Shown: one piece after another, positions 8,092 through 33,399 of the stretch
How the letters are laid out: every line of letters begins with the position of its first letter
Numbering within the stretch: the first letter of the stretch is position 1
Notes under the pieces: model-generated
Told to the model about the DNA's origin: nothing
The model's database searches: none
Seen by the model: the letters and a program-made list of their open reading frames with translations, nothing else
Position numbers and translations under genes: made by a program
NCBI RefSeq assembly: GCF_009931435.1
Contig: NZ_CP043414.1
Origin: Escherichia coli
GTDB lineage: Bacteria; Pseudomonadota; Gammaproteobacteria; Enterobacterales; Enterobacteriaceae
Length of the DNA stretch: 64,000 nucleotides
Strand: one strand, 5' to 3'

Positions 8092-8496
8092 CGTGGCAGG
8101 CCACCCCACCGGAAGGACCCGCACAAATGAGAGTGATTATCACCATTGCTGATGAATAAATTGATGAAAATCATTGAAACGCCTTTCAGCAAGATAACGG
8201 CGACGGTCGTTGTTGCACTCCGTAACTCTGCGACTAAGGTTAAAAGCATGGCCCTCTTTTGCCACCGGCAAATCTTCAATGGATTTCCCCTGCCGGTTTT
8301 TTATTTTCGTCGATGCATAACATTGCATTTACATCAATAGCGGCTATTGTCATTAGTATGTTGCATCAATGCATGGGTGGTATTGGCGGTCTTCGCCGGC
8401 CGGTTCTGTGTAGCTGGACCGGTTTTTTATTTCTCACATTACAGCAGCCCCTTAGAGTGAAGGGCTGCTGTAATGCCGCAATCTTTTTTAACATGA

Positions 8497-17738: not shown

Positions 17739-18233
17739 TTAGTTTTGCTGTTCTATTCTAAGCTTGATAGTTTCATACAAAACAATAGTTGCGCCTGTTT
17801 TACATAATTCCCGGCTGTCATACGCGCGAGACCAATAACACAACCAGTTCTCGAGATCTTCTCGAGTATAGGTTTTGCAGGCCAGTCCCTCTGCCATTTC
17901 CACGATTTCATCGCCTGGTGCTGTTAACTCATAGCCATTCAACAACAAGAAGACGTAACCAGCCATCATAGCTGTTCGTTTGTTCGCATTAGCAAACGGA
18001 TGATTCTGAATCAGACTTTCAATCAATACCGATGCCAGTACAAACATGTCATTAGTCTGTTCATACCATCGAACCATGCTGGGACGGGCCTGAGAAGAAC
18101 TTAAGTTATCTGGACTCAGAACACCAACGGGCTCATCTGGCGTCTGTAATTCAATTAGGGAACGATTGATTTCAACAAGATCATCAACCGTAAGGTAATG
18201 CACTCCTTCAACAATCTCAGCCATAGAGCACAA
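17739..18233 (-). CDS. doc: Doc/Fic-family toxin (death-on-curing-like)
   Basis: Motif HPFANANKRTA matches the Fic/Doc signature HxFx(D/N)(A/G)NKR. Confidence 0.8.
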   Translation of the reverse strand: MCSMAEIVEGVHYLTVDDLVEINRSLIELQTPDEPVGVLSPDNLSSSQARPSMVRWYEQTNDMFVLASVLIESLIQNHPFANANKRTAMMAGYVFLLLNGYELTAPGDEIVEMAEGLACKTYTREDLENWLCYWSRAYDSRELCKTGATIVLYETIKLRIEQQN

Positions 18234-18242
18234 TACCCATCA

Positions 18243-18470
18243 TTACACTTTTGAAAGTTCTTCCATGGCTTTCTCATAACGAGAAAAACCGAAATCAAAA
18301 GCATTTTTCACTTGTTCACGATGTGCGCAGTTTTCATCAATCGCTGGGCGAGGGACTGCCACAACGCTTTTATCGCGAGGCGGAATACTCAACCGCGTGT
18401 GTTTTTTGAGTGGGCAGCTCATACTAATGAGTCCTTTTGTTTTCCGATTATTGGCAAAGCCATGCACCAA
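18243..18470 (-). CDS. Putative antitoxin for Doc (not obviously Phd-like); start uncertain
   Basis: Small ORF immediately upstream of doc with a 9-nt gap; typical antitoxin-toxin gene order. Confidence 0.45.
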   Translation of the reverse strand: MVHGFANNRKTKGLISMSCPLKKHTRLSIPPRDKSVVAVPRPAIDENCAHREQVKNAFDFGFSRYEKAMEELSKV

Positions 18471-18547
18471 ATTTGATGCAAAATAGATCTGTTTGAGATC
18501 CTTAGGATAGTCTAATGGTAGCTAAAATTACAACCTCATAATGCGAC

Positions 18548-18569
18548 GAAAAACCCGCCGAAGCGGGTT
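18548..18569 (-). terminator. Rho-independent terminator after hok (same stem-loop as 17703-17724)
   Basis: AAAACCCGCCGAAGCGGGTT, followed by a T-run on the minus strand. Confidence 0.55.
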
Positions 18570-18637
18570 AAGTGCGGGTGCGTTGAGGATGCCTGACACA
18601 TCAGAGGTGGCGAGGGATTTCTCCCCCGCCAGGTCTC

Positions 18638-18793
18638 TTACTCCTCAGGTTCGTAAGCTGTGAAGACAGCGACCTCCGTCTGGCCGGTTCGGATTCGTAC
18701 CTCGCAGAGGTCTTTCCTCGTTACCAGTGCCGTCACAATGACGGTTAAACAGATGACGATCAGGGCGATTAACATCGCCTTTTGCTGCTTCAT
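18638..18793 (-). CDS. hok: Hok/Gef-family type I toxin (HokD/RelF-like, 51 aa)
   Basis: MKQQKAMLIALIVICLTVIVTALVTRKDLCEVRIRTGQTEVAVFTAYEPEE matches recalled HokD/RelF; the ORF track extends the frame upstream. The sok antisense RNA is expected around 18.8-18.95 kb but is not mapped. Confidence 0.85.
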   Translation of the reverse strand: MKQQKAMLIALIVICLTVIVTALVTRKDLCEVRIRTGQTEVAVFTAYEPEE

Positions 18794-19640
18794 AGCCTGC
18801 TTCTCCTTGCCTTTCGGCACGTAAGAGGCTAACCTAGATTTGCCGTTCATAGATTGAGCCTCAGATTAATGTTAAGCGTCTTGCAGGACGCGTAATGTTA
18901 ACTGGGGCTTTTCTATATCTGCCTTTGGTGTTCATGCCTGAGACAGATAGCCTCAAGCACCCGCAGCCATTGTACTTAACTCCCGTTACCTCGCCAATAT
19001 AAAATCAATCAGAAAGGCGATCCATAAGGACAATAGCAAGACAATAAATTGCCATTACCCGCAATAGCCAGCGCACATTTGAGGACCAGCACGACAACTT
19101 TCTGTATCGGACGTACACCAGTCCTGATAAATACAAGGCGGTCTCATCAGTGATGAAATGCAACTATTGAGTACAGTTTCTCTGATTTTTCTGTAAAACA
19201 TGGAACACAACAACTAAATATAACTAGCACTTCTTAAGATGTACAAATTCAGAGTTAAGATAACGTAAGCAGTTTTCTCAAAACTAAGTGTAAATTTTTA
19301 ATGAAGAGCAGTGCTATGCTCCTGATCATATATTCATTGTTTGGAACTGGAGGAATATTTAGGTTGCTGGAGTGGTTGATTGAATTTAAATCAACTAAGA
19401 CAAAAACCAACAATTAAAGATATGTGGTATATCAGAAAACAACTATCCGTATATTACTACAGAATTAAATACTAGCAACAAAGCTGTCTTTATTGATTTT
19501 TTATCTGATATCGAAATAAATAAACATAAAATAACCAACTAATTAAAACAGAGACTCGACAATGAGCCTCTATCTATTGTAACAGCACTTCCAAATTTAT
19601 TTTAGTAAGATAATAGCATGGGGCATACTAGCCCCATCTT

Positions 19641-21143
19641 TTAAACCGTTTCATCAAGGAAATACTTAGACGAATCATCCTGTTTCGGTTGATATGTTTT
19701 TTTTGCAGAATTAAGAACTCTTCTTAGTTCTTTTCTTAACTCAGGTAAACGCTCCTGAAGAGGGTTAGAACACCATTGTGAAGGCAACCCTCTTATAATA
19801 GCTTCGGAACAAAGCGGTGAAATAAGTTTTTCCATTTGATAATAGAAAGTTTTTGCTCGACTTACACGCATTGTGATCCTTTTTATTACATCTCTTTCAG
19901 ACTCAATTCTAGCACTCAGATCTCTTAATCTACTCCATACCTTAGCATCAGCAATATATGTATCATAAAGCATACACTCTATAAACGTGAAATTACTAAT
20001 AAGTTCTTTTGCAATATACCCCCCCAGCCGAGAAGGAATGAAACTTGATGAAGCTGTTGGATCTCCGTGATTTACGGTGAACAAAAACCTTTTATTGCAT
20101 AAATCAACGAGAACTCGATGCGTGAAAGAGTCACCTATACCAATTAACCTTAACTTTTCAGTTATTACCGAACCATCGATTTGTCTGAATCCGGGATCGC
20201 TTGCATACGAAACGATAACATTAAGAATGTACAGCCTCAATAATTGCATTTGTGTCACAGCTAAATTCGAATCAAACGGGTTCGCAATAGTCGACGTTGA
20301 CTCGCTATAAGTCAACTCAGTACCCAGTAATATAGCTCTAAATGCCTCATGACGTGGAAGAAGATATCTTCCTTGTTCTCTGAAAATTTGTACTGCTTTA
20401 CCTGGACTCGTATACCCTCTTTCTAAGAACTCACGAGTCATACGTAATGCTAATCGAACATCATCCGTAGCAAGAACTTCAATACGTGTTCCAATCTCAC
20501 TTCCCAGCACAGACCCACTAATAATATCGACTAATTGTGATATATCATCCAATACAACTTTAGCGCCATTTTCTGCAATAAAATTTCCACTTTTATTACT
20601 TGTCATATACTTTACTAGTGCAAAGCGTTTTGCAATCACACTACTTATTCTCGGTGGATCTATTTGTATAACTTCAAAATCGAAAGCATCTATAGCAGGT
20701 GAGTTTTTATGTTTGATAAATGTAGACTGCCTCAATGAAAGTACTAAATTTAATGAAAGCGCTCTGGAAATTGAAAATGACTCGGTAAATATCCGGGACT
20801 GGATATCATCAAACTCGATCTGATCAACGTTATCAATAACAAGAAAAAAAGATGTCTCTTTTGTAACACGACTTATTATTTTATCAACATAAGGTTTTAT
20901 CTTTTTATATTGTTCATATAAAAAATCCGAGATTCTGGTATTTTTTTGATCCTCACTCAATAAAAAAAGAGGTCCTGATTTTATCGCCTCAATATCTTCT
21001 CGAAATGCATCAAATACAAAATCCTTATTACTCAAAACAGGATGCTTATTGATATATTCCAGAATTGATTTATAAATAAAATCGACTATTGAACTTTCTG
21101 ATGGATTATCTAGAAAGTCTATATGAACCCAATGCGGCGTCAA
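19641..21143 (-). CDS. 3' ORF of split nuclease-NTPase gene: Walker B-like FFLVIDNVD plus ~400-aa C-terminal region; track start is TTG and the frame is open further upstream
   Basis: Same strand as, and overlapping frame with, the upstream ORF across an A8 tract; hhhhDxxD motif ~100 aa into the ORF; AT-rich. Confidence 0.6.
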   Translation of the reverse strand: MTPHWVHIDFLDNPSESSIVDFIYKSILEYINKHPVLSNKDFVFDAFREDIEAIKSGPLFLLSEDQKNTRISDFLYEQYKKIKPYVDKIISRVTKETSFFLVIDNVDQIEFDDIQSRIFTESFSISRALSLNLVLSLRQSTFIKHKNSPAIDAFDFEVIQIDPPRISSVIAKRFALVKYMTSNKSGNFIAENGAKVVLDDISQLVDIISGSVLGSEIGTRIEVLATDDVRLALRMTREFLERGYTSPGKAVQIFREQGRYLLPRHEAFRAILLGTELTYSESTSTIANPFDSNLAVTQMQLLRLYILNVIVSYASDPGFRQIDGSVITEKLRLIGIGDSFTHRVLVDLCNKRFLFTVNHGDPTASSSFIPSRLGGYIAKELISNFTFIECMLYDTYIADAKVWSRLRDLSARIESERDVIKRITMRVSRAKTFYYQMEKLISPLCSEAIIRGLPSQWCSNPLQERLPELRKELRRVLNSAKKTYQPKQDDSSKYFLDETV

Positions 21144-21147
21144 GATA

Positions 21148-22146
21148 TCACATTGATTTGAAAAAAAACTCTTTTATTCTAACCTTTCTCATGTAATGAA
21201 GAAATGTTGTTTTACCTGCACCTACAGTCCCAAGTAACAAGATCGCGAGAGGTTTGTCATTCCTGACTTTTATTTTTTTCTTCCCTTTAACCTGAAACTT
21301 ATCAACTATTCTTTTTGTATCTTTATCATTAAGCCCTTTTAGTACTTCACCATTCAGCACACTTGAACGCCTACCTATATTCATTCTAATTTTACTATCG
21401 AATCTCATAGTTTCTGGTGTTGAAACATAACATTTATCAAAGGAGTCTTCATCCAAGTAAAGTATAGAATCAGAAAAAGCCAACCTTAATTCATCAGCAA
21501 TCAAATGATATATTGGATTATTTGTCTGTGTTCTGTTTTGTTGCGAATAAAAATTTCTTAATTTTCTAAATTCTATTTGATTTTCGACGCGACCTAAAAG
21601 TGCTGTTTCTAGACTTCCTGATATAACATTTTCACGACTAAGTAAATCATAGAATTCTTGATAATTATCATTTAAGCAATCTTCTAACGACCAGAACACA
21701 AGCGCTATTGAATCATTAAATTTGACATTGTCATGCCTCTGAGCTGCAAAACATGCCCATACATTTCCATTCGTAGCGACAGCATAATCTATACCAAATT
21801 TCCTGGCGTAATCTCTAGCTTGTATTATCGCTTCACCAAGATCACTTTGTAAAAAACTATTACTTAGCTTTATTTTTCTTTTTCCTGGAATTGTACTAAA
21901 GCTTGGCCCTGCCTTTTTAGCTTCAACAACAAGAGCAATATTAGCTGTTTTTAGTATATAATCAGCATAAGTTGTCAAACCATCTTCAGTCACATGCTCT
22001 TCTGGTTTTATATCACTATCAGTCCACATCAAGACTTCCTTTAATACCCGATCTATCACTTTTAGTCTTGTGGCTGCTTCATTTGCATTTTCTAATTGTA
22101 AATGATGATAAGCTGATAATATTTCCGAAATAAATGTTTTCTCCAT
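21148..22146 (-). CDS. 5' ORF of split nuclease-NTPase gene: N-terminal PD-(D/E)xK (HsdR-N/Mrr-like) nuclease domain plus Walker A P-loop
   Basis: N-terminus ANEAATRLKVIDRVL...YADYILKT...ALVVEAKK...QARDYA...YAVATNG (restriction-endonuclease-like fold); C-terminus LAILLLGTVGAGKTTFLHYM (GxxGxGKT), then a stop 22 codons later inside the homopolymer. Confidence 0.65.
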   Translation of the reverse strand: MEKTFISEILSAYHHLQLENANEAATRLKVIDRVLKEVLMWTDSDIKPEEHVTEDGLTTYADYILKTANIALVVEAKKAGPSFSTIPGKRKIKLSNSFLQSDLGEAIIQARDYARKFGIDYAVATNGNVWACFAAQRHDNVKFNDSIALVFWSLEDCLNDNYQEFYDLLSRENVISGSLETALLGRVENQIEFRKLRNFYSQQNRTQTNNPIYHLIADELRLAFSDSILYLDEDSFDKCYVSTPETMRFDSKIRMNIGRRSSVLNGEVLKGLNDKDTKRIVDKFQVKGKKKIKVRNDKPLAILLLGTVGAGKTTFLHYMRKVRIKEFFFKSM

Positions 22147-25120: not shown

Positions 25121-25546
25121 TTAGTGCATCACCACAGCATTTCCTGCCGGGCCACCACGATTCATCTGATTGAAACCGGCGATTGCCACTGCGACAAAAT
25201 CATCAGCGTCTCTCACCAGTCGTTCCCGCGTCTCCACCAACTCCCGAAAATAGACTGAACTGTGGCTGCGCATCCGGGCCACCAGCAGAGGTGGCATTGC
25301 TTTTTCGATCGCTGGTAACAACGCCTGAATTTTTTCAACCGCATCAGTAGTGTCTTTCTCCACCCAGCGGAAAATTTTCTGGGTATTACGAGCCAGGGCT
25401 TCTGGATGGCTGTCGTCGTACAGTTCCGGGGACGTCATTCCCAGTTCGAAATAAGCCCTGGTTATCTTGGCCGCCGGAACTTTTTCACCATCCGGACGCG
25501 CCCAAGCATTCATAGCCATGCGGATGTGTTCATGCTTGATTTTCAT
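25121..25546 (-). CDS. ydaT: YdaT-like protein (Rac-type, CII-position)
   Basis: 141 aa starting MKIKHEHI..., as recalled for Rac YdaT; follows the cro-like gene. Confidence 0.55.
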   Translation of the reverse strand: MKIKHEHIRMAMNAWARPDGEKVPAAKITRAYFELGMTSPELYDDSHPEALARNTQKIFRWVEKDTTDAVEKIQALLPAIEKAMPPLLVARMRSHSSVYFRELVETRERLVRDADDFVAVAIAGFNQMNRGGPAGNAVVMH

Positions 25547-25862: not shown

Positions 25863-26513
25863 ATGATGATGGAAAGCCTTGGCATTAGGCTTAAGAGACT
25901 CAGAAAAGACAAGGGACTGACCCAAGTCGAACTGGGCAAGCTTTCTGGCGTAACAGGGGTAACTATAGGGTACTGGGAGAAAGACCTAAACGAACCCGGT
26001 AGCAAAGCTCTTAGTAAATTAGCCCAAGCACTAGGAACTACTGAGTCCTATCTCCTATATGGAGTATCGTCTACTGAACCTACCCTTGTGCAGAACAATT
26101 CAGGCACCCAAATCCCCTATCTTTCATGGGGGGAAGCAATTTCTTTCCTAATTTTAGAAGGAGAGAAAACTATGGGAAATGCCGACAGAATCACCACATT
26201 CTTTGACGTCAAGGAGGGGGATTTTGCCGTTTCAATGCCTGATGACACTATGCACAACCCATCAGGGTCGCCAAGCATTCCGGTTGGTGCCACAGTGATC
26301 ATGAGGCCTAGAGAAAAATATAAAAATGGTAGTATCGTCGCTGTAATAGTCCCAGATCCGCTTACAAACGAACCATCTATGACTATAAAAAAATTAGTCA
26401 TCGACGGAAAACTCGTGTATTTAAGCCCCCTCAATCCTCGCTATCAATCGTCCTTACTGACACCTGAATGTAAAATTGTTGCTGTAGCAAAAGGTGTGCA
26501 GTTCAGCCTATAG
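25863..26513 (+). CDS. cI: CI-like repressor (N-terminal HTH plus C-terminal S24 LexA-like autopeptidase domain)
   Basis: 216 aa; LTQVELGKLSGVTGVTIGYWEK (HTH) and C-terminal VIMRP...GSIVAVIV...KKLVIDGKLVYLSPLNP; divergent from the cro-like gene. Confidence 0.85.
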   Translation: MMMESLGIRLKRLRKDKGLTQVELGKLSGVTGVTIGYWEKDLNEPGSKALSKLAQALGTTESYLLYGVSSTEPTLVQNNSGTQIPYLSWGEAISFLILEGEKTMGNADRITTFFDVKEGDFAVSMPDDTMHNPSGSPSIPVGATVIMRPREKYKNGSIVAVIVPDPLTNEPSMTIKKLVIDGKLVYLSPLNPRYQSSLLTPECKIVAVAKGVQFSL

Positions 26514-26786: not shown

Positions 26787-26939
26787 ATGGATACTATCGA
26801 TCTTGGCAACAGTGAATCTCTGGTATGCGGCGTGTTTCCCAACCAGGACGGTACGTTCACCGCGATAACGTATACCAAAAGCAAAACGTTTAAAACCGAA
26901 ACTGGCGCGCATCGCTGGTTAGCCAGAAACACTGACTGA
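26787..26939 (+). CDS. Small early-left protein (hypothetical)
   Basis: ATG preceded by GAGG RBS (MDTIDLGNSESLV...); first ORF after the putative pL. Confidence 0.3.
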   Translation: MDTIDLGNSESLVCGVFPNQDGTFTAITYTKSKTFKTETGAHRWLARNTD

Positions 26940-26950
26940 TGAGGTTGACT

Positions 26951-27340
26951 ATGGAATTTAAAGAGTTACCAAAAGAAATCCAAGAAATTGCAGCACATAC
27001 ACTTCGTCAACGTCTGAACGAAGTTGCATTAGAAGCTGAAACGAAAAAAGACATTGATAATATGGCTCGTAATGTGCGCGATGCGTTTACCGGACTGTAT
27101 TCTGTTTCTGTTGAGGACAATAACATTCCTGACGAACAGGAAGAGAGTACAGACCCCCACAAATTCTGGAAATCTGTAGAGGTCATTGCAAAAGCCAAAC
27201 TACTGGAACTTAACAACTTATATCATCGTGAGAATGATGGTCGTCAATCTTTGCATCATCAGGGAGTCGCCACCCTGATAGCTCTAACGAAAGAGCAAGG
27301 CGAATATCATCCAGTGGCATTAAACGACACTGTGAAATAG
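26951..27340 (+). CDS. Hypothetical early-left protein
   Basis: 130-aa acidic ORF; unrecognised. Overlapped by a minus-strand ORF (27210-27587) that I consider less likely. Confidence 0.35.
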   Translation: MEFKELPKEIQEIAAHTLRQRLNEVALEAETKKDIDNMARNVRDAFTGLYSVSVEDNNIPDEQEESTDPHKFWKSVEVIAKAKLLELNNLYHRENDGRQSLHHQGVATLIALTKEQGEYHPVALNDTVK

Positions 27341-27906
27341 TCCATCCATGTTTACGGGATAGATAAAGATATATCGCTTCGAAACCATCGACATGGTTTG
27401 GATAGCCTTCCTCAGCAGCAAGGTTATCCCCAAAACATTCAAGAATATAATTTAAACGCGCTGTTTCATAATGAATCTTCCAGCGAGTCTGATTTAGTTT
27501 GCTGACCATTTTAATTTTATCCTCCATTGAGGTTACTGGTTGAGAATGGAGACCACACGTGACAGCGCGTGGTCGTGCGCCGGACACGGATAAGAATCCG
27601 GCACAAACAGTTTACTGAAAGGATATATCCCTGAAAAGTCAGGGCATAACGCGAAAGCGCACGGCGAAGTCATTCCTCCCTTTGTTGTGTACCACTGACA
27701 TCTTCGTCTGTGCGCTTCCGGTTGTGGCAATCCGCGAAATGGCGCGGCGGTAAGTATGGCGGGGTTATTCCTTCCCCGTTGAGGACACCGGGTTGTCAGG
27801 TTGACCATACGCTTAAGTGACAACCCCGCTGCAACAACCCATGTTGATTACCTTTTGGCGGGTATCCGTTTTTTGTTTTCCCTTGTGATACCCGCCCTTT
27901 TTAAAG

Positions 27907-28085: not shown

Positions 28086-28268
28086 ATGGAAACGTTATTA
28101 CCAAACGTCAATACGTCTGAAGGTTGTTTTGAAATTGGTGTCAGAATCAGTAACCCTGTATTTACTGAAGATGCCATTAATAAGAGAAAACACGAACGGG
28201 AGCTATTAAATCAAATATGCATTGTTTCAATGCTGGCCCGTTTACGCCTGATGCAAAAAGGACGATGA
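28086..28268 (+). CDS. Small hypothetical early protein
   Basis: METLLPNVNTSEGCFEIG...; 60 aa. Confidence 0.3.
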   Translation: METLLPNVNTSEGCFEIGVRISNPVFTEDAINKRKHERELLNQICIVSMLARLRLMQKGR

Positions 28269-28474
28269 CAATGAATACAGTATTTGCACTCGTTCTGACG
28301 GTTTTTCTTAATACAGGCGAGCCAGTCGATCTTGTTATTGGTATACATGACTCAATGAAAGAATGCATGGCTGCCGCAGCGGAACAGAAAATTCCCGGCA
28401 ACTGTTATCCGGTTGATAAAGTTATTCGCATGGACAATAACGAAATCCCGGCAGGACTTAAAACAGCGCCGTAA
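28265..28474 (+). CDS. Small hypothetical protein with hydrophobic N-terminus (possible secreted/membrane)
   Basis: MTMNTVFALVLTVFLNTGEP...; RBS-like AAGGA upstream. Confidence 0.35.
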   Translation: MTMNTVFALVLTVFLNTGEPVDLVIGIHDSMKECMAAAAEQKIPGNCYPVDKVIRMDNNEIPAGLKTAP

Positions 28475-28554: not shown

Positions 28555-31026
28555 ATGAGTAAAGTCTTTATTTGCGCCGCCATTCCGGACGAACAGGCAA
28601 TAAAGGAAGAAGGTGCAGTCGCTGTAGCCACTGCCATTGAAGCCGGCGACGAACGCCGCGCCCGAGCCAAATTTACCTGGCAATTCCTGGAGCAATATCC
28701 GGCTGCTCAGGACTGCGCTTATAAATTTCTTGTTTGCGAGGATAAACCCGGCATGCCCCGCCCTGCCATCGACTCCTGGGATACCGAATATATGCAGGAA
28801 AACTGCTGGGATGAGGAATCCGCTTCCTTTATTCCGGTCGAACCAGAATCCGATCCGATGAACGTCAATTTTGACAAGCTGTCCCCTGAAGTACAGAACG
28901 CGGTCCTGGTTAAGTTCGACACATGTGAAAACATCACCGTTGATATGGTTATTAGCGCACAGGAATTGTTGCAGGAAGACATGGCAACATTCGACGGACA
29001 TATCGTTGAAGCGTTGATGAAAATGCCAGAAGTTAACGCCATGTATCCGGAGCTTAAGTTGCACGCCATTGGGTGGGTTAAGCATAAATGTATTCCTGGT
29101 GCTAAATGGCCCGAAATTCAGGCAGAGATGCGCATCTGGAAAAAACGTCGCGAAGGTGAACGCAAGGAAACCGGAAAATACACGTCTGTTGTTGATCTCG
29201 CCCGCGCCAGAGCCAATCAACAGTACACTGACAATTCAACAGGAAAAATCAGCCCGGTCATTGCTGCCACTCATCGCGAATACAAGCAGACATGGAAAAC
29301 ACTGGATGACGAACTGGCCTACGCTCTCTGGCCTGGTGATGTGGATGCCGGAAACATTGACGGCAGCATCCATCGCTGGGCAAAAAATGAAGTTATCGAC
29401 AACGACCGCGAAGACTGGAAGCGTATCTCGGCATCAATGCGCAAACAGCCTGATGCCCTTCGCTACGACCGCCAGACTATTTTTGGCCTTGTCCGTGAAC
29501 GTCCGATCGACATTCACAAAGACCCTGTGGCACTGAACAAATACATTACTGAATACCTGACTACAAAGGGCGTGTTTGAAGATGAAGGAAGAAATCAGAG
29601 CGCAACTGATACTCTCTCGTCACCAGTACCAGAAACTGATGCAGTGGAAACGGCAATTCCGGACAACGAAAAAACCGAATGCAAAGTGGAAGTCGAACCA
29701 TCTGTAGAGCGTGAGGGGCCGTTCTACTTCCTCTTCACCGACAAGGATGGCGAAAAATATGGTCGCGCAAACAAACTTTCTGGTCTGAATAAGGCGCTGA
29801 CTGCAGGGGCTACTGAAATCACGAAAGAAGAATATTTTGCCCGTAAAAACGGTACATACTCAGGTTCACAACAAAATACTGGTGCATCTGACACGACCGC
29901 ACAACCAGAGCCGGTAAAAGTTACCGCTGACGAAGTAAACAAAATTATGCAGGCAGCCAATATCACCCAGCCTGACGCCGATAAGTTGCTTGCTGTATCA
30001 CGTGGTGAATTTGTTGAAGGGATTAGCGACCCGAATGATCCGAAATGGGTGAAGGGGATTGAAACCCGCGATTCAGTGAATCAGAACCAGCAAGAAACGG
30101 AACAGAACGACCAGAAAGCGGAACAAAACAGCCCAAATGCGTTACAAAACGAGCCAGAAACGAAACAACCTGAGCCAGTAGCGCAACAGGAAGCGGAAAA
30201 AGTCTGCACCGCCTGCGGTCAGACCGGCGGCGGCAACTGCCCTGATTGTGGTGCGGTGATGGGCGACGCAACATACCAAGAAACATTCGATGACAAGAAC
30301 CAGGTTGAAGTTCAGGAAGACGATTCGGAGAAAATGGAAGGCGCTGAACATCCACACAAAGAGAATGCTGGCAGCGCTCAGGATCACGCCAGCGATAGTG
30401 AAACTGGCGAGACGGCAGATCCCTTAATTACGGTGAACGGTCATCACGTTATCACATCCACCAGCAGGACGTGTGACCATCTAATGATCGACCTTGAAAC
30501 CATGGGAAAAAATCCTGATGCCCCGATTATCTCAATAGGTGCAATATTTTTCGATCCGCAAACCGGAGATATGGGACCGGAATTTAGTAAGACTATCGAT
30601 CTGGAAACTGCTGGCGGAGTCATTGATCGGGACACCATTAAATGGTGGCTTAAACAATCACGCGAAGCGCAATCTGCCATTATGACCGATGAAATCCCGT
30701 TAGATGATGCACTGTTACAATTGCGGGAATTTATCGACGAAAACTCCGGTGAATTTTTTGTTCAGGTCTGGGGAAATGGAGCCAACTTCGACAACACGAT
30801 TTTGCGCCGTTCATACGAACGGCAGGGGATCCCCTGCCCGTGGCGTTACTACAACGATCGCGATGTACGCACAATCGTTGAGCTGGGGAAAGCCATAGAC
30901 TTCGATGCCAGAACGGCTATTCCATTCGAAGGTGAGCGCCATAATGCACTTGATGACGCCCGTTACCAGGCAAAATACGTTTCAGCAATCTGGCAAAAAC
31001 TGATCCCGAATCCGGTTGATTTTTAA
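28555..31026 (+). CDS. Large prophage exonuclease: RecE-like N-terminal/central region fused to a C-terminal DEDDh (DnaQ-like) 3'-5' exonuclease domain
   Basis: 823 aa; central DADKLLAVSRGEFVEGISDPNDPKWVKGIETRD resembles recalled Rac RecE; C-terminal motifs MIDLETMG, NGANFD, HNALDDARY = DEDDh exo I-III; Cys cluster CTACGQ...CPDCG. Confidence 0.65.
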   Translation: MSKVFICAAIPDEQAIKEEGAVAVATAIEAGDERRARAKFTWQFLEQYPAAQDCAYKFLVCEDKPGMPRPAIDSWDTEYMQENCWDEESASFIPVEPESDPMNVNFDKLSPEVQNAVLVKFDTCENITVDMVISAQELLQEDMATFDGHIVEALMKMPEVNAMYPELKLHAIGWVKHKCIPGAKWPEIQAEMRIWKKRREGERKETGKYTSVVDLARARANQQYTDNSTGKISPVIAATHREYKQTWKTLDDELAYALWPGDVDAGNIDGSIHRWAKNEVIDNDREDWKRISASMRKQPDALRYDRQTIFGLVRERPIDIHKDPVALNKYITEYLTTKGVFEDEGRNQSATDTLSSPVPETDAVETAIPDNEKTECKVEVEPSVEREGPFYFLFTDKDGEKYGRANKLSGLNKALTAGATEITKEEYFARKNGTYSGSQQNTGASDTTAQPEPVKVTADEVNKIMQAANITQPDADKLLAVSRGEFVEGISDPNDPKWVKGIETRDSVNQNQQETEQNDQKAEQNSPNALQNEPETKQPEPVAQQEAEKVCTACGQTGGGNCPDCGAVMGDATYQETFDDKNQVEVQEDDSEKMEGAEHPHKENAGSAQDHASDSETGETADPLITVNGHHVITSTSRTCDHLMIDLETMGKNPDAPIISIGAIFFDPQTGDMGPEFSKTIDLETAGGVIDRDTIKWWLKQSREAQSAIMTDEIPLDDALLQLREFIDENSGEFFVQVWGNGANFDNTILRRSYERQGIPCPWRYYNDRDVRTIVELGKAIDFDARTAIPFEGERHNALDDARYQAKYVSAIWQKLIPNPVDF

Positions 31027-31092
31027 TGTTCAACCCTGATCGCCGTCCCCGAATTATATTGGCGGCGGTCATGCTGTAAGGCACGTGACCAC

Positions 31093-31344
31093 ATGTACGA
31101 ATTAACTCTATCGCCAGCAGAGATTCAAGAGATCACGAAATACGAGCGATACACAAAACAGCAACACCAGTTAAGGCTGCACGGTATCCCATTTGTAATC
31201 GGTCCTAAAAACGAACCAATAGTTCTTCGCAGGGATATTCCACACGGACTGACTACGATGCCAAAAGCACCTGAACTGGTTTCCGCTGAACCCGATTTTG
31301 AGGCGCTGAACAATGGGAAGACCAAGAAAAAACAAAAAAGATAA
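31093..31344 (+). CDS. xis: Putative excisionase/recombination directionality factor (by position and size)
   Basis: 83-aa basic ORF immediately upstream of, and overlapping, int. Confidence 0.45.
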   Translation: MYELTLSPAEIQEITKYERYTKQQHQLRLHGIPFVIGPKNEPIVLRRDIPHGLTTMPKAPELVSAEPDFEALNNGKTKKKQKR

Positions 31345-32332
31345 TGCACTACCACCGCGTGTTAGATCGAATGGTTACAGTTACGTATGGAAACCCAAAG
31401 GAAGCACAAGAACTATAGGGCTCGGAAGAGTGCGGGAAACCAGCGTAGCTAAAGTCTGGCAAAATTATGAGCTGGAAAAAGCAAAACTCCACAACATAAT
31501 GACAGTAGCTAAATTATGGCACATGTTTATGGACTCCCCTGCATTTACAGAACTGGCCCCCCGAACCCAAAAAGATTATCGGCAACATCAAAGGGCATTG
31601 TTGGCAGTATTCGGAAAAGTGCTTGCTGATAATGTAAAAATTGAACAGGTAAGAATTTTCATGGATAAGCGAGGACTTGAGAGCAAGACCCAAGCAAACC
31701 ATGAACTGGCAAGTCTGAGCCGTGTATACGGATGGGGATATGAGCGTGGGTATGTGAAAAATAATCCATGCAAAGGAGTCAGAAAATTCACACTTAAAGC
31801 CCGTACTGTTTACATCACCGATGAACAGTATGCTGCAATATATGCGGAAGCAATTCCACAGTTACGTATTGCAATGGAGATATCCTATCTTTGTGCGGCA
31901 AGGCTCGGTGATGTACTCGAGCTGAAATGGCAGGATATTATGGAGAAAGGGATTTACATTGAGCAAAACAAGACCGGCACTAAACAAATCAAGGAATGGT
32001 CTCCGCGATTACGTACGGCGATCCAGTTAGCCCGAAATGTATCTTCCGGCACATGCGAGTATGTGATCAACACAACCAAAGGCGGGAAGGTAATAGCCAA
32101 GACGCTGAACAACTGGTGGAATCAGGCTAAACGTGCAGCCGAGCAAAAAGCCGGCGTTCCGTTTGGGTGCAACTTCCATGACATAAAAGCCAAAGGGATT
32201 TCAGATTACGAAGGCAGCAGTCGCGACAAACAAATTTTCAGTGGACACAAAACAGAAAATCAGGTGTTGATTTACGATCGTAAAACCAAAATAACACCAA
32301 CACTGGATTTGCCGCTTGTGGTCAGTAAGTAG
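31313..32332 (+). CDS. int: Tyrosine site-specific integrase
   Basis: 339 aa; C-terminal catalytic region with R...HDIKAKG...GHKTENQVLIYDR (H-x-x-R and Tyr nucleophile context); adjacent to the att/tRNA fragment. Confidence 0.9.
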   Translation: MGRPRKNKKDNALPPRVRSNGYSYVWKPKGSTRTIGLGRVRETSVAKVWQNYELEKAKLHNIMTVAKLWHMFMDSPAFTELAPRTQKDYRQHQRALLAVFGKVLADNVKIEQVRIFMDKRGLESKTQANHELASLSRVYGWGYERGYVKNNPCKGVRKFTLKARTVYITDEQYAAIYAEAIPQLRIAMEISYLCAARLGDVLELKWQDIMEKGIYIEQNKTGTKQIKEWSPRLRTAIQLARNVSSGTCEYVINTTKGGKVIAKTLNNWWNQAKRAAEQKAGVPFGCNFHDIKAKGISDYEGSSRDKQIFSGHKTENQVLIYDRKTKITPTLDLPLVVSK

Positions 32333-32473
32333 GCAATACAGAAAATTTTCTGGCAAAAAGACTTGGTATATTAACTCTGAATAACTCCCTAATATATTGA
32401 TTTTTCTTGGTGTCAAGTCTGATTAACTTTTCGGCCATTTTCCGTATTATACTGATTTTTCTTTATTTTTCTT

Positions 32474-32533
32474 CGGTCTTGAAAACCGGCGACCCGAAAG
32501 GGTTCCAGAGTTCGAATCTCTGCGCTTCCGCCA
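32474..32533 (+). tRNA. serT: Partial tRNA-Ser(UGA): 3' 60 nt of serT (anticodon arm to CCA), prophage attachment-site core at the junction with host DNA
   Basis: CGGTCTTGAAAACCGGCGACCCGAAAGGGTTCCAGAGTTCGAATCTCTGCGCTTCCGCCA matches the recalled 3' portion of E. coli serT; the 5' ~28 nt are absent, replaced by phage DNA. Confidence 0.8.
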
Positions 32534-32541
32534 AATAAGAT

Positions 32542-32576
32542 AAGGGGTTAGCTAAATGCTAACCCCTTTTTCTTTT
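32542..32576 (+). terminator. Native serT rho-independent terminator
   Basis: AAGGGGTTAGC-taaat-GCTAACCCCTT followed by a T-rich run. Confidence 0.65.
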
Positions 32577-32739
32577 GCCTGTCGAAATTCTCAGGGCGTT
32601 ATATTTGCTTAATGACCTGATAATCCGCTGTTAAACCTGTTCCAGATCAAATGCGTAAAGATGGGTAAAACTTCTGGGTACCCTTGCGCATTATTATTAT
32701 GCTGCTTAATTAATTACATCTGTCATAGAGAGTGACTCA

Positions 32740-33399
32740 ATGGATCGTATTGTTAGTTCTTCACATGACCGTACATCGCTGCTTAGCACCCATAAGGTGC
32801 TGCGTAATACCTATTTTCTGCTGAGCCTGACGCTGGCCTTTTCGGCGATTACCGCAACTGCCAGTACGGTGCTGATGCTGCCATCTCCGGGTCTGATTCT
32901 GACGCTGGTGGGTATGTATGGTTTGATGTTCCTGACCTATAAAACGGCGAATAAGCCGACCGGAATTATCTCCGCATTCGCCTTTACCGGTTTTCTGGGT
33001 TATATCCTCGGACCAATTCTGAATACCTATCTGTCTGCCGGAATGGGTGACGTAATCGCTATGGCACTGGGTGGAACGGCGTTAGTGTTCTTCTGCTGCT
33101 CTGCGTATGTGCTGACCACCCGCAAAGATATGTCGTTCCTTGGCGGTATGCTGATGGCGGGTATTGTGGTGGTGCTGATTGGTATGGTTGCTAATATCTT
33201 CCTGCAGCTGCCTGCCCTGCATCTGGCGATCAGCGCGGTCTTCATTCTGATCTCCTCTGGCGCTATCTTGTTTGAAACCAGCAACATCATTCATGGCGGT
33301 GAAACGAACTATATTCGTGCCACGGTTAGCCTGTATGTTTCGCTGTACAACATCTTCGTCAGCCTGCTGAGCATTCTGGGCTTCGCCAGCCGCGATTAA
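32740..33399 (+). CDS. yccA: Inner-membrane FtsH modulator YccA (BAX inhibitor-1 family)
   Basis: 219 aa, 7-TM profile, matches recalled YccA; conserved K-12 neighbourhood. Confidence 0.95.

Follow-up and report, generated by a model that had tools for sequence, protein, structure and literature searches.

The stretch of Escherichia coli DNA analysed here, 64,000 nucleotides of contig NZ_CP043414.1 (assembly GCF_009931435.1; hereafter the window), carries an intact copy of ydfE, a gene of lambdoid prophages that encodes an 823-residue exonuclease. The C-terminal domain of its product is a DEDDh nuclease, an assignment that we regard as secure. Among the relatives whose loci we examined, a clean rule holds: genes with a DEDDh ending come without recT, and genes with the PD-(D/E)xK ending of RecE come with it. 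We consider it probable that the protein is a partner-independent 3'-5' DNA exonuclease, expressed from the early-left operon on induction, that would constitute a nuclease-only recombination (Rec) module. The gene and its parts lie in the window as follows:

28555..31026 (+): whole gene, ATG start, 823-residue modular exonuclease, intact ydfE (open reading frame, PHROG 2082, identity to K-12 ydfE)
28555..29220 (+): N-terminal module, about residues 1-222, non-catalytic (Pfam YdfE_N on homologues)
29287..29859 (+): middle module, about residues 245-435, probable distant kin of the RecE middle (PF27432 YdfE_C on homologues)
29974..30432 (+): acidic Q/E/N-rich linker, residues 474-626, junction of the mosaic, common to RecE
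30205..30249 (+): putative zinc ribbon CxxC-x7-CxxC, residues 551-565 (motif; kept in RecE)
30478..30993 (+): DEDDh exonuclease domain, residues 642-813, DexA/Rv2179c-like (PF16473)

The nuclease domain is matched by the Pfam family PF16473 (Rv2179c-like) over residues 642-813 with an E-value of 1.6e-67 and 227 bits against a gathering score of 27, covering profile positions 2-177 of 177; RNase_T gives a weak Pfam match to the same domain. The three motifs that an earlier, sequence-only reading had picked out in the 823-residue frame were located at residues 646-651 (DLETMG), 741-746 (NGANFD) and 796-801 (HNALDD, the H-x4-D motif). Residues D646, E648, D746, H796 and D801 align with D7, E9, D119, H186 and D191 of the T4 exonuclease DexA. 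This pentad is invariant across seven aligned sequences with identities down to 27%, and the catalytic residues are kept among homologues down to 60% identity. An AlphaFold2 (AF2) model of residues 636-823 reached a predicted local distance difference test score (pLDDT) of 84 and a predicted template modelling score (pTM) of 0.84. Its top Foldseek match in the PDB was T4 DexA (8KEL, E 8.6e-11, template modelling score 0.76), ranking above Cas2-DnaQ and RNase T, and a sequence search of the PDB matched DexA alone (8KEL/8KEN, E 1.5e-6). No PD-(D/E)xK or DUF3799 match was returned by a Pfam scan of the window protein, and BLASTP showed no similarity to the nuclease region of RecE. The domain search and the structure prediction that the same reading had proposed as checks thus both place the C terminus with the DEDDh enzymes. 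The profile, motif and alignment matches cited as evidence all lie far above chance. Judged from the family, the domain would act with 3'-5' polarity and on DNA.

Upstream of the nuclease, the protein reads as a mosaic, with YdfE_N, YdfE_C and an acidic zinc-ribbon linker preceding the DEDDh domain as four modules in all. Residues 1-470 appear to belong to the YdfE_N and YdfE_C families, both non-catalytic, and to be at most distantly related to the N-terminal two-thirds of RecE. The NCBIfam model PRK09709, the RecE equivalog, aligns only with residues 238-626 (model positions 261-603) and scores 282 bits, below its curated equivalog cut-off of 1269. In the middle module, where the AF2 model has confident domains at residues 245-340 and 388-435, BLASTP gave a weak match of residues 262-336 to residues 295-368 of the RecE of Rac-SA53 (27%, E 2e-4). 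The linker is far closer: residues 474-626 are 73% identical to residues 471-616 of Rac-SA53 RecE (BLASTP, E 6e-66), with both CxxC pairs kept, and at the nucleotide level the identity to recE is 81% over window positions 29974-30422, stopping just 5' of the nuclease domain. The resemblance to Rac RecE proposed earlier for the central part of the protein therefore stands for residues 474-626 and is at most distant for residues 1-470. The low-complexity linker with its cysteine cluster was described correctly as well, since Q, E, N and D make up 54% of residues 501-550 and the two pairs are CTAC (551-554) and CPDC (562-565). The Pfam zinc-ribbon family DZR matches the cluster weakly (E 0.12).

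In YdfE/RecE-type relatives (labelled P0125-P0266), certain short motifs turn up repeatedly in the disordered linkers, namely G-x-F-S-[IV]-[DE]-G-L, E-T-L-N-x-M-G-Y and R-G-E-[FY]-V-x-G-I-S-D-P-x-D-P-K-W-V. Docking of partner proteins is a possible function of these peptides.

The relationship to RecE is therefore one of shared plan and different ends. Rac RecE likewise lies early-left just upstream of xis-int and is similar in size and modular layout, sharing the linker and the distant homology of the middle region. It differs in its N-terminal Exonuc_VIII module (PF06630, present in Rac-SA53 RecE and absent from the Pfam scan of the window protein), in its C-terminal PD-(D/E)xK 5'-3' nuclease, which carries the DUF3799 match, and in the recT gene downstream, whereas the window protein has a YdfE_N start, a DEDDh ending and no recT. 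We accordingly rejected the identification as canonical RecE (exodeoxyribonuclease VIII), of whose characters the linker alone was found.

To follow the modules among relatives, residues 1-630 were queried against 1.84 billion cluster representatives (50%-identity clusters). The search found only 255 clusters, which indicates a narrow enterobacterial family. Module-by-module BLAST of the long cluster hits assigned the following combinations:

YdfE_N with DEDDh: the window protein and P0122
Exonuc_VIII (RecE type) with DEDDh: P0128, P0141 and P0244
YdfE_N with PD-(D/E)xK: P0131, P0193 and P0221
Exonuc_VIII (RecE type) with PD-(D/E)xK: canonical RecE
Either N-terminal type with no recognisable nuclease: several relatives

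The earlier guess of a domain-swapped relative of RecE is borne out by these combinations, and most directly by P0128, a RecE body with a DEDDh ending. Its first ~450 residues are 85-92% identical to Rac-SA53 RecE, while its linker and DEDDh domain are 89% and 97% identical to those of the window protein; nucleotide similarity to the P0128 gene covers window positions 30001 to 31073. The reverse swap is represented by the three proteins with a YdfE_N start and a PD-(D/E)xK nuclease. The conserved linker is the site of module exchange.

The type of nuclease goes together with the presence of recT. In all nine individually inspected loci of the DEDDh type (the window, BCE049, mEp460, vB_EcoS-689R5 and Tritos, with labels L001, L002, L005 and L006, as well as L010, L012/L013, L014 and L016), the gene is followed directly by xis and int, without recT. 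Genes of the PD-(D/E)xK type had recT at their stop codon in every locus inspected (Rac-SA53, which is L004, L015 and L011). A survey of IMG/VR with the linker peptide as query recovered 80 loci, close relatives only: 76 have the DEDDh domain and the other four are cut by contig ends. No RecT or PD-(D/E)xK match was found among these 80 loci, many of which have only ~1.4 kb of downstream DNA. The rule linking nuclease type and recT is the one observation of this analysis that may exceed what existing databases hold.

The element that houses the gene is a lambdoid prophage. Its head and lysis genes occupy the left part of the window, and its integrase adjoins the chromosomal genes yccA-tusE-rlmI. 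The early-left region of the prophage runs in the order repressor, ydfA-like gene (DUF1391), 133-residue open reading frame (ORF), DicF-like small RNA (sRNA), dicB, ydfD-like gene (DUF1482), exonuclease, xis and int, with these features placed as follows:

25863..26513 (+): CI/LexA-type repressor, start of the early-left region (phrog_4; labelled 'LexA family protein' in BCE049)
26939-27340: 133-residue early-left ORF
28086..28474 (+): dicB and the ydfD-like gene (DUF1482), directly upstream of the exonuclease (phrog_1251, phrog_1092; annotation of BCE049, Tritos and K-12)
31093-31344 (+): excisionase (phrog_1266)
31313-32332 (+): integrase (integrase PHROGs; xis and int also annotated in sister loci)

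This order matches the dicB operon of the K-12 prophage Qin and is also found in BCE049, mEp460, vB_EcoS-689R5 and Tritos. Together with the 93% amino acid identity between the K-12 pseudogene ydfE and the window exonuclease across residues 1-256, it identifies the gene as an intact ydfE, which belongs to the standard gene set of Qin/mEp460/Tritos-type lambdoid prophages. The K-12 copy is interrupted by IS2E and its sequence beyond about residue 256 is gone. The other lines of evidence agree, as the PHROG 2082 profile match spans residues 1-823 of 823, and homologues that are 87-100% identical over residues 1-470 have precomputed Pfam hits to YdfE_N (PF27430) and YdfE_C (PF27432). K-12 Qin ydfE and the phage alleles have identical neighbours and show no material difference; integrase and attachment site vary among the prophages. 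Copies 99.9% identical to the window gene are labelled 'exonuclease' or '3'-5' exonuclease' in E. coli genomes, and the phage copies (Tritos, mEp460, HannyBb, PPompW) have 90-97% nucleotide identity to it. The gene is also contained in isolated phage genomes, namely mEp460, Tritos, HannyBb and Evi.

The DicF-like sRNA of the operon (27845-27902, +) is diverged: the terminal hairpin, the T-run and the downstream 'AAAGTGAATT' are as in K-12 dicF, and the 5' half differs. Rfam reported nothing at its gathering score for this position.

The absence of an annealing partner had also been noted from the sequence, and it held in every search. Between repressor and int, all ORFs besides the exonuclease are of 133 residues or fewer; they match only DUF1391/YdfA-like, phrog_1363, DicB, DUF1482/YdfD-like and excisionase families, and no annealing-protein family was found among them with PHROGs. 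A Pfam scan of the other prophage ORFs found no annealing-protein family either. With Rac RecT, lambda Bet, Exo and Gam, and P22 Erf, Abc1 and Abc2 as tblastn queries, nothing was found below E 0.01 in the window and, extending the search beyond it as had been suggested, nothing below E 0.001 in the complete, near-identical sister prophage BCE049. Only 66 bases separate the stop codon of the exonuclease from xis, so that no adjacent recT-like gene was overlooked in another frame. Genes for a single-strand binding protein (SSB) or a RecBCD inhibitor were likewise not found in the early-left operon of the window or of the complete BCE049 prophage.

This arrangement has a published counterpart. 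In a classification of lambdoid Rec modules, in which DnaQ-like nucleases occur, the 'Tritos' prototype has a nuclease and lacks a single-strand annealing protein (SAP), SSB and anti-RecBCD function (PMC12315714, Genome Res 2025). The Tritos copy is syntenic and has 92% nucleotide identity to the window gene, and the early-left operon of the window shows the same pattern, with the nuclease present and genes for SAP, SSB and anti-RecBCD absent. The gene is thus already catalogued and very common, and its nuclease-only arrangement is already published.

On the explanation that we favour, the gene, which lies at the recombination-module position of the early-left operon, would be expressed with dicB, xis and int on prophage induction. 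Its product would act as a Mg2+-dependent 3'-5' exonuclease on DNA and would do so alone. The RecE-like body would presumably be a scaffold on which DNA ends are delivered or assembled. An annealing protein would not be required, because a 3'-5' enzyme leaves no 3' tail, and any recombination or end-trimming supported by the exonuclease would depend on host RecA/RecBCD.

Several points weigh against this explanation. The arguments for polarity and DNA substrate rely on sequence identities of 28% (DexA) and 37% (the E. coli homologue EcD), and the best Pfam family carries an RNase name. No recognisable fold was found for the N-terminal 470 residues, and the function of the N-terminal part of RecE is unknown (PMC11611040), so that a role as scaffold is conjecture by analogy with RecE. 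Furthermore, 3'-5' exonucleases usually inhibit homologous recombination (PMC12315714), for which reason a role in recombination is not self-evident. The annealing-protein search covered the window and the BCE049 prophage, and another prophage of the host could supply RecT or Bet; the IMG/VR survey reaches close relatives only, many of them with short downstream flanks. A scan for promoters and terminators found sites no more often than in shuffled sequence, and none upstream of the exonuclease was convincing. A literature search on ydfE returned only incidental mentions and no functional study, and a search combining Rv2179c and phage turned up none on the window protein. Chi sites number 4 on one strand and 3 on the other in the part of the prophage inside the window, an ordinary density for E. 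coli without orientation bias, and these counts lend no support to a Chi-based argument from the window alone. The Chi counts, the promoter scan and a PADLOC match (see below) did not discriminate among the explanations.

Among the alternatives, the one that survives best, although we judge it unlikely, is that the gene is an inter-phage weapon. Its DEDDh domain would degrade the DNA of superinfecting phages (e.g. of T-even phages modified with 5-hydroxymethylcytosine) or of the host in the manner of EcD or DexA, and the gene would be a prophage defence or competition gene beside dicB and DicF. DexA, the closest solved structure, shares with the window domain the DEDDh fold, the five catalytic residues and the aspartate at the position of DexA D90. 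It differs in being a stand-alone protein of 227 residues from a virulent phage, with extra loops and ~28% identity. The study that solved the DexA structure also showed that its homologue EcD digests T4 DNA and, when plasmid-borne, protects cells against T4 ('HREX'; PMC12153337, NAR 2025). We recovered EcD via the published primer: it has 189 residues, stands alone, carries alanine at position 78 as described (PMC12153337) and is 37% identical to residues 644-816 of the window protein (E 4e-33), with the catalytic residues kept. The homologue table of the same study includes URC08875.1 of vB_EcoS-689R5, whose C-terminal domain is 98% identical to that of the window protein. That ~75% of E. 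coli genomes retain the gene, frequently as multiple copies, would also suit a weapon.

However, the selective digestion of modified DNA and the defence against T4 have been demonstrated for EcD alone (PMC12153337), which lacks a RecE-like body. Loss of the DexA D90 residue, replaced by Ala78 in EcD, is said to prevent tetramer formation and the cleavage of unmodified DNA (PMC12153337). The window protein keeps an aspartate (Asp718) at this specificity position, so the selectivity of EcD is not simply transferable to it. Of the DexA residues linked to recognition of 5-hydroxymethylcytosine, W152 corresponds to Tyr765 and D169 to Phe783, which has D782 and D784 on either side; these correspondences depend on the alignment. 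In addition, the gene lies at the Rec-module position inside a repressed early-left operon, with no convincing promoter of its own. PADLOC gives a generic Cas-associated DEDDh match only (E 1.9e-5), and the 2023 library does not list the gene among its defence genes.

A side observation concerns the EcD sequence itself. The protein taken from the IMG/VR locus L026 (reverse strand from 3480) ends ...CCTGAACATATGA, and the published reverse primer reads ...CCTGAAACATATGA, with one extra A. Either the alleles differ or the table of the paper contains a typo.

A reading that goes beyond the weapon idea is conceivable, though we judge it unlikely. The RecE/YdfE body could be a platform for DNA ends, indifferent to polarity, that phages fit either with a 5'-3' nuclease and RecT or with a 3'-5' DexA-like nuclease alone. 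The DEDDh version of about three-quarters of E. coli strains would then not be a recombination enzyme. It could be an induced weapon against host DNA or the possibly modified DNA of competitor phages, or an end-trimmer that feeds phage DNA into the RecBCD-Chi pathway of the host.

An RNA exonuclease of the kind of M. tuberculosis Rv2179c or RNase T, as the RefSeq label '3'-5' exoribonuclease' implies, is improbable; it could trim, for instance, transcripts of the phage or the DicF sRNA nearby. In favour of it, the top Pfam family bears the name 'Rv2179c-like 3'-5' exoribonuclease', the fold search gave strong matches to RNase T, oligoribonuclease and REXO2, and a DicF-like sRNA is part of the same operon. 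Nevertheless, DexA stood above every RNase in the fold search and was the sole match by sequence in the PDB. The closer characterised relatives, DexA and EcD, act on DNA (PMC12153337), and the body of the protein is common to a DNA recombination exonuclease.

A hidden two-component recombinase is about as improbable. Its partner would be a small operon protein that went unrecognised, or a RecT or Bet that another prophage provides in trans. DEDDh-type genes and recE frequently occur in the same E. coli genome (strain RM11911 is in both hit lists), for several of the small early-left ORFs no function is known, and the RecE-like linker is conserved. Against this stand the small size of the early-left ORFs and their lack of matches to annealing-protein families, and the mutual exclusion of DEDDh ending and recT in every locus examined. 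Moreover, 3'-5' resection yields no 3' tail on which RecT or Bet could act, and DNA for the RecE-type nuclease is present in 191 of 5426 genomes versus 4063 for the DEDDh segment.

A decaying, non-functional prophage remnant, as suggested by the K-12 copy truncated by IS2E and by many partial database entries, is highly improbable and was rejected: the frame is intact, the catalytic residues are conserved, the gene occurs in isolated phages and widely in E. coli genomes, and the partial entries are in many cases from contigs only a few kb long, as would be expected from assembly breaks.

The preferred nuclease-only reading concerns a very common gene. In a survey of 5426 complete E. coli genomes, 4783 matched some part of it and 3531 had at least 80% of it covered; the median copy number per genome was two. 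The DEDDh segment was found at 8106 places in its 4063 genomes; the 191 genomes with a RecE nuclease segment were scored for the Rac-SA53 type. The DEDDh arrangement is therefore the commonest form of the gene in E. coli and not an unusual one. Given the rule for recT and this roughly twenty-fold excess, the unstudied form is the norm and the textbook RecE the exception. Annotation does not reflect this. RefSeq labels read 'exonuclease', '3'-5' exonuclease' or '3'-5' exoribonuclease', and several phage records read 'exodeoxyribonuclease VIII'. Since the protein falls outside RecE and its nearest characterised relatives act on DNA, the labels 'exodeoxyribonuclease VIII' and '3'-5' exoribonuclease' are probably wrong. 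The practical value of the analysis lies in correcting the annotation of such a common gene, and data on polarity, substrate and phenotype would bear on the N-terminal part of RecE, a region employed in direct-cloning recombineering.

Other parts of the window deserve brief mention. No tRNA was found in its 64 kb by ARAGORN. Inside the prophage, a pair of low-GC genes (GC 0.34-0.40; 500 and 332 residues; 19641-22146, -) has weak matches only, to HSDR_N-like and methyl-directed restriction endonuclease-like families and to a P-loop resembling Zeta/AriA. The near-identical BCE049 prophage has different genes at this position, and the pair is probably a defence or cargo insert. Also within the prophage, a Fic/DOC-family protein (17739-18233) adjoins a hok/sok-type locus (Rfam sok, 18788-18962) in the region 17739-18962 (-). 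The gene at the cII position (25121-25546, -) belongs to the YdaT_toxin family, and the replication region, in place of lambda O/P, encodes an HTH_36 protein, with DUF1627 and DUF977 genes after it. At the other end of the prophage, where the integrase adjoins yccA, the region 32332-32740 contains a perfect 11-bp bidirectional terminator-like hairpin at 32542-32568.

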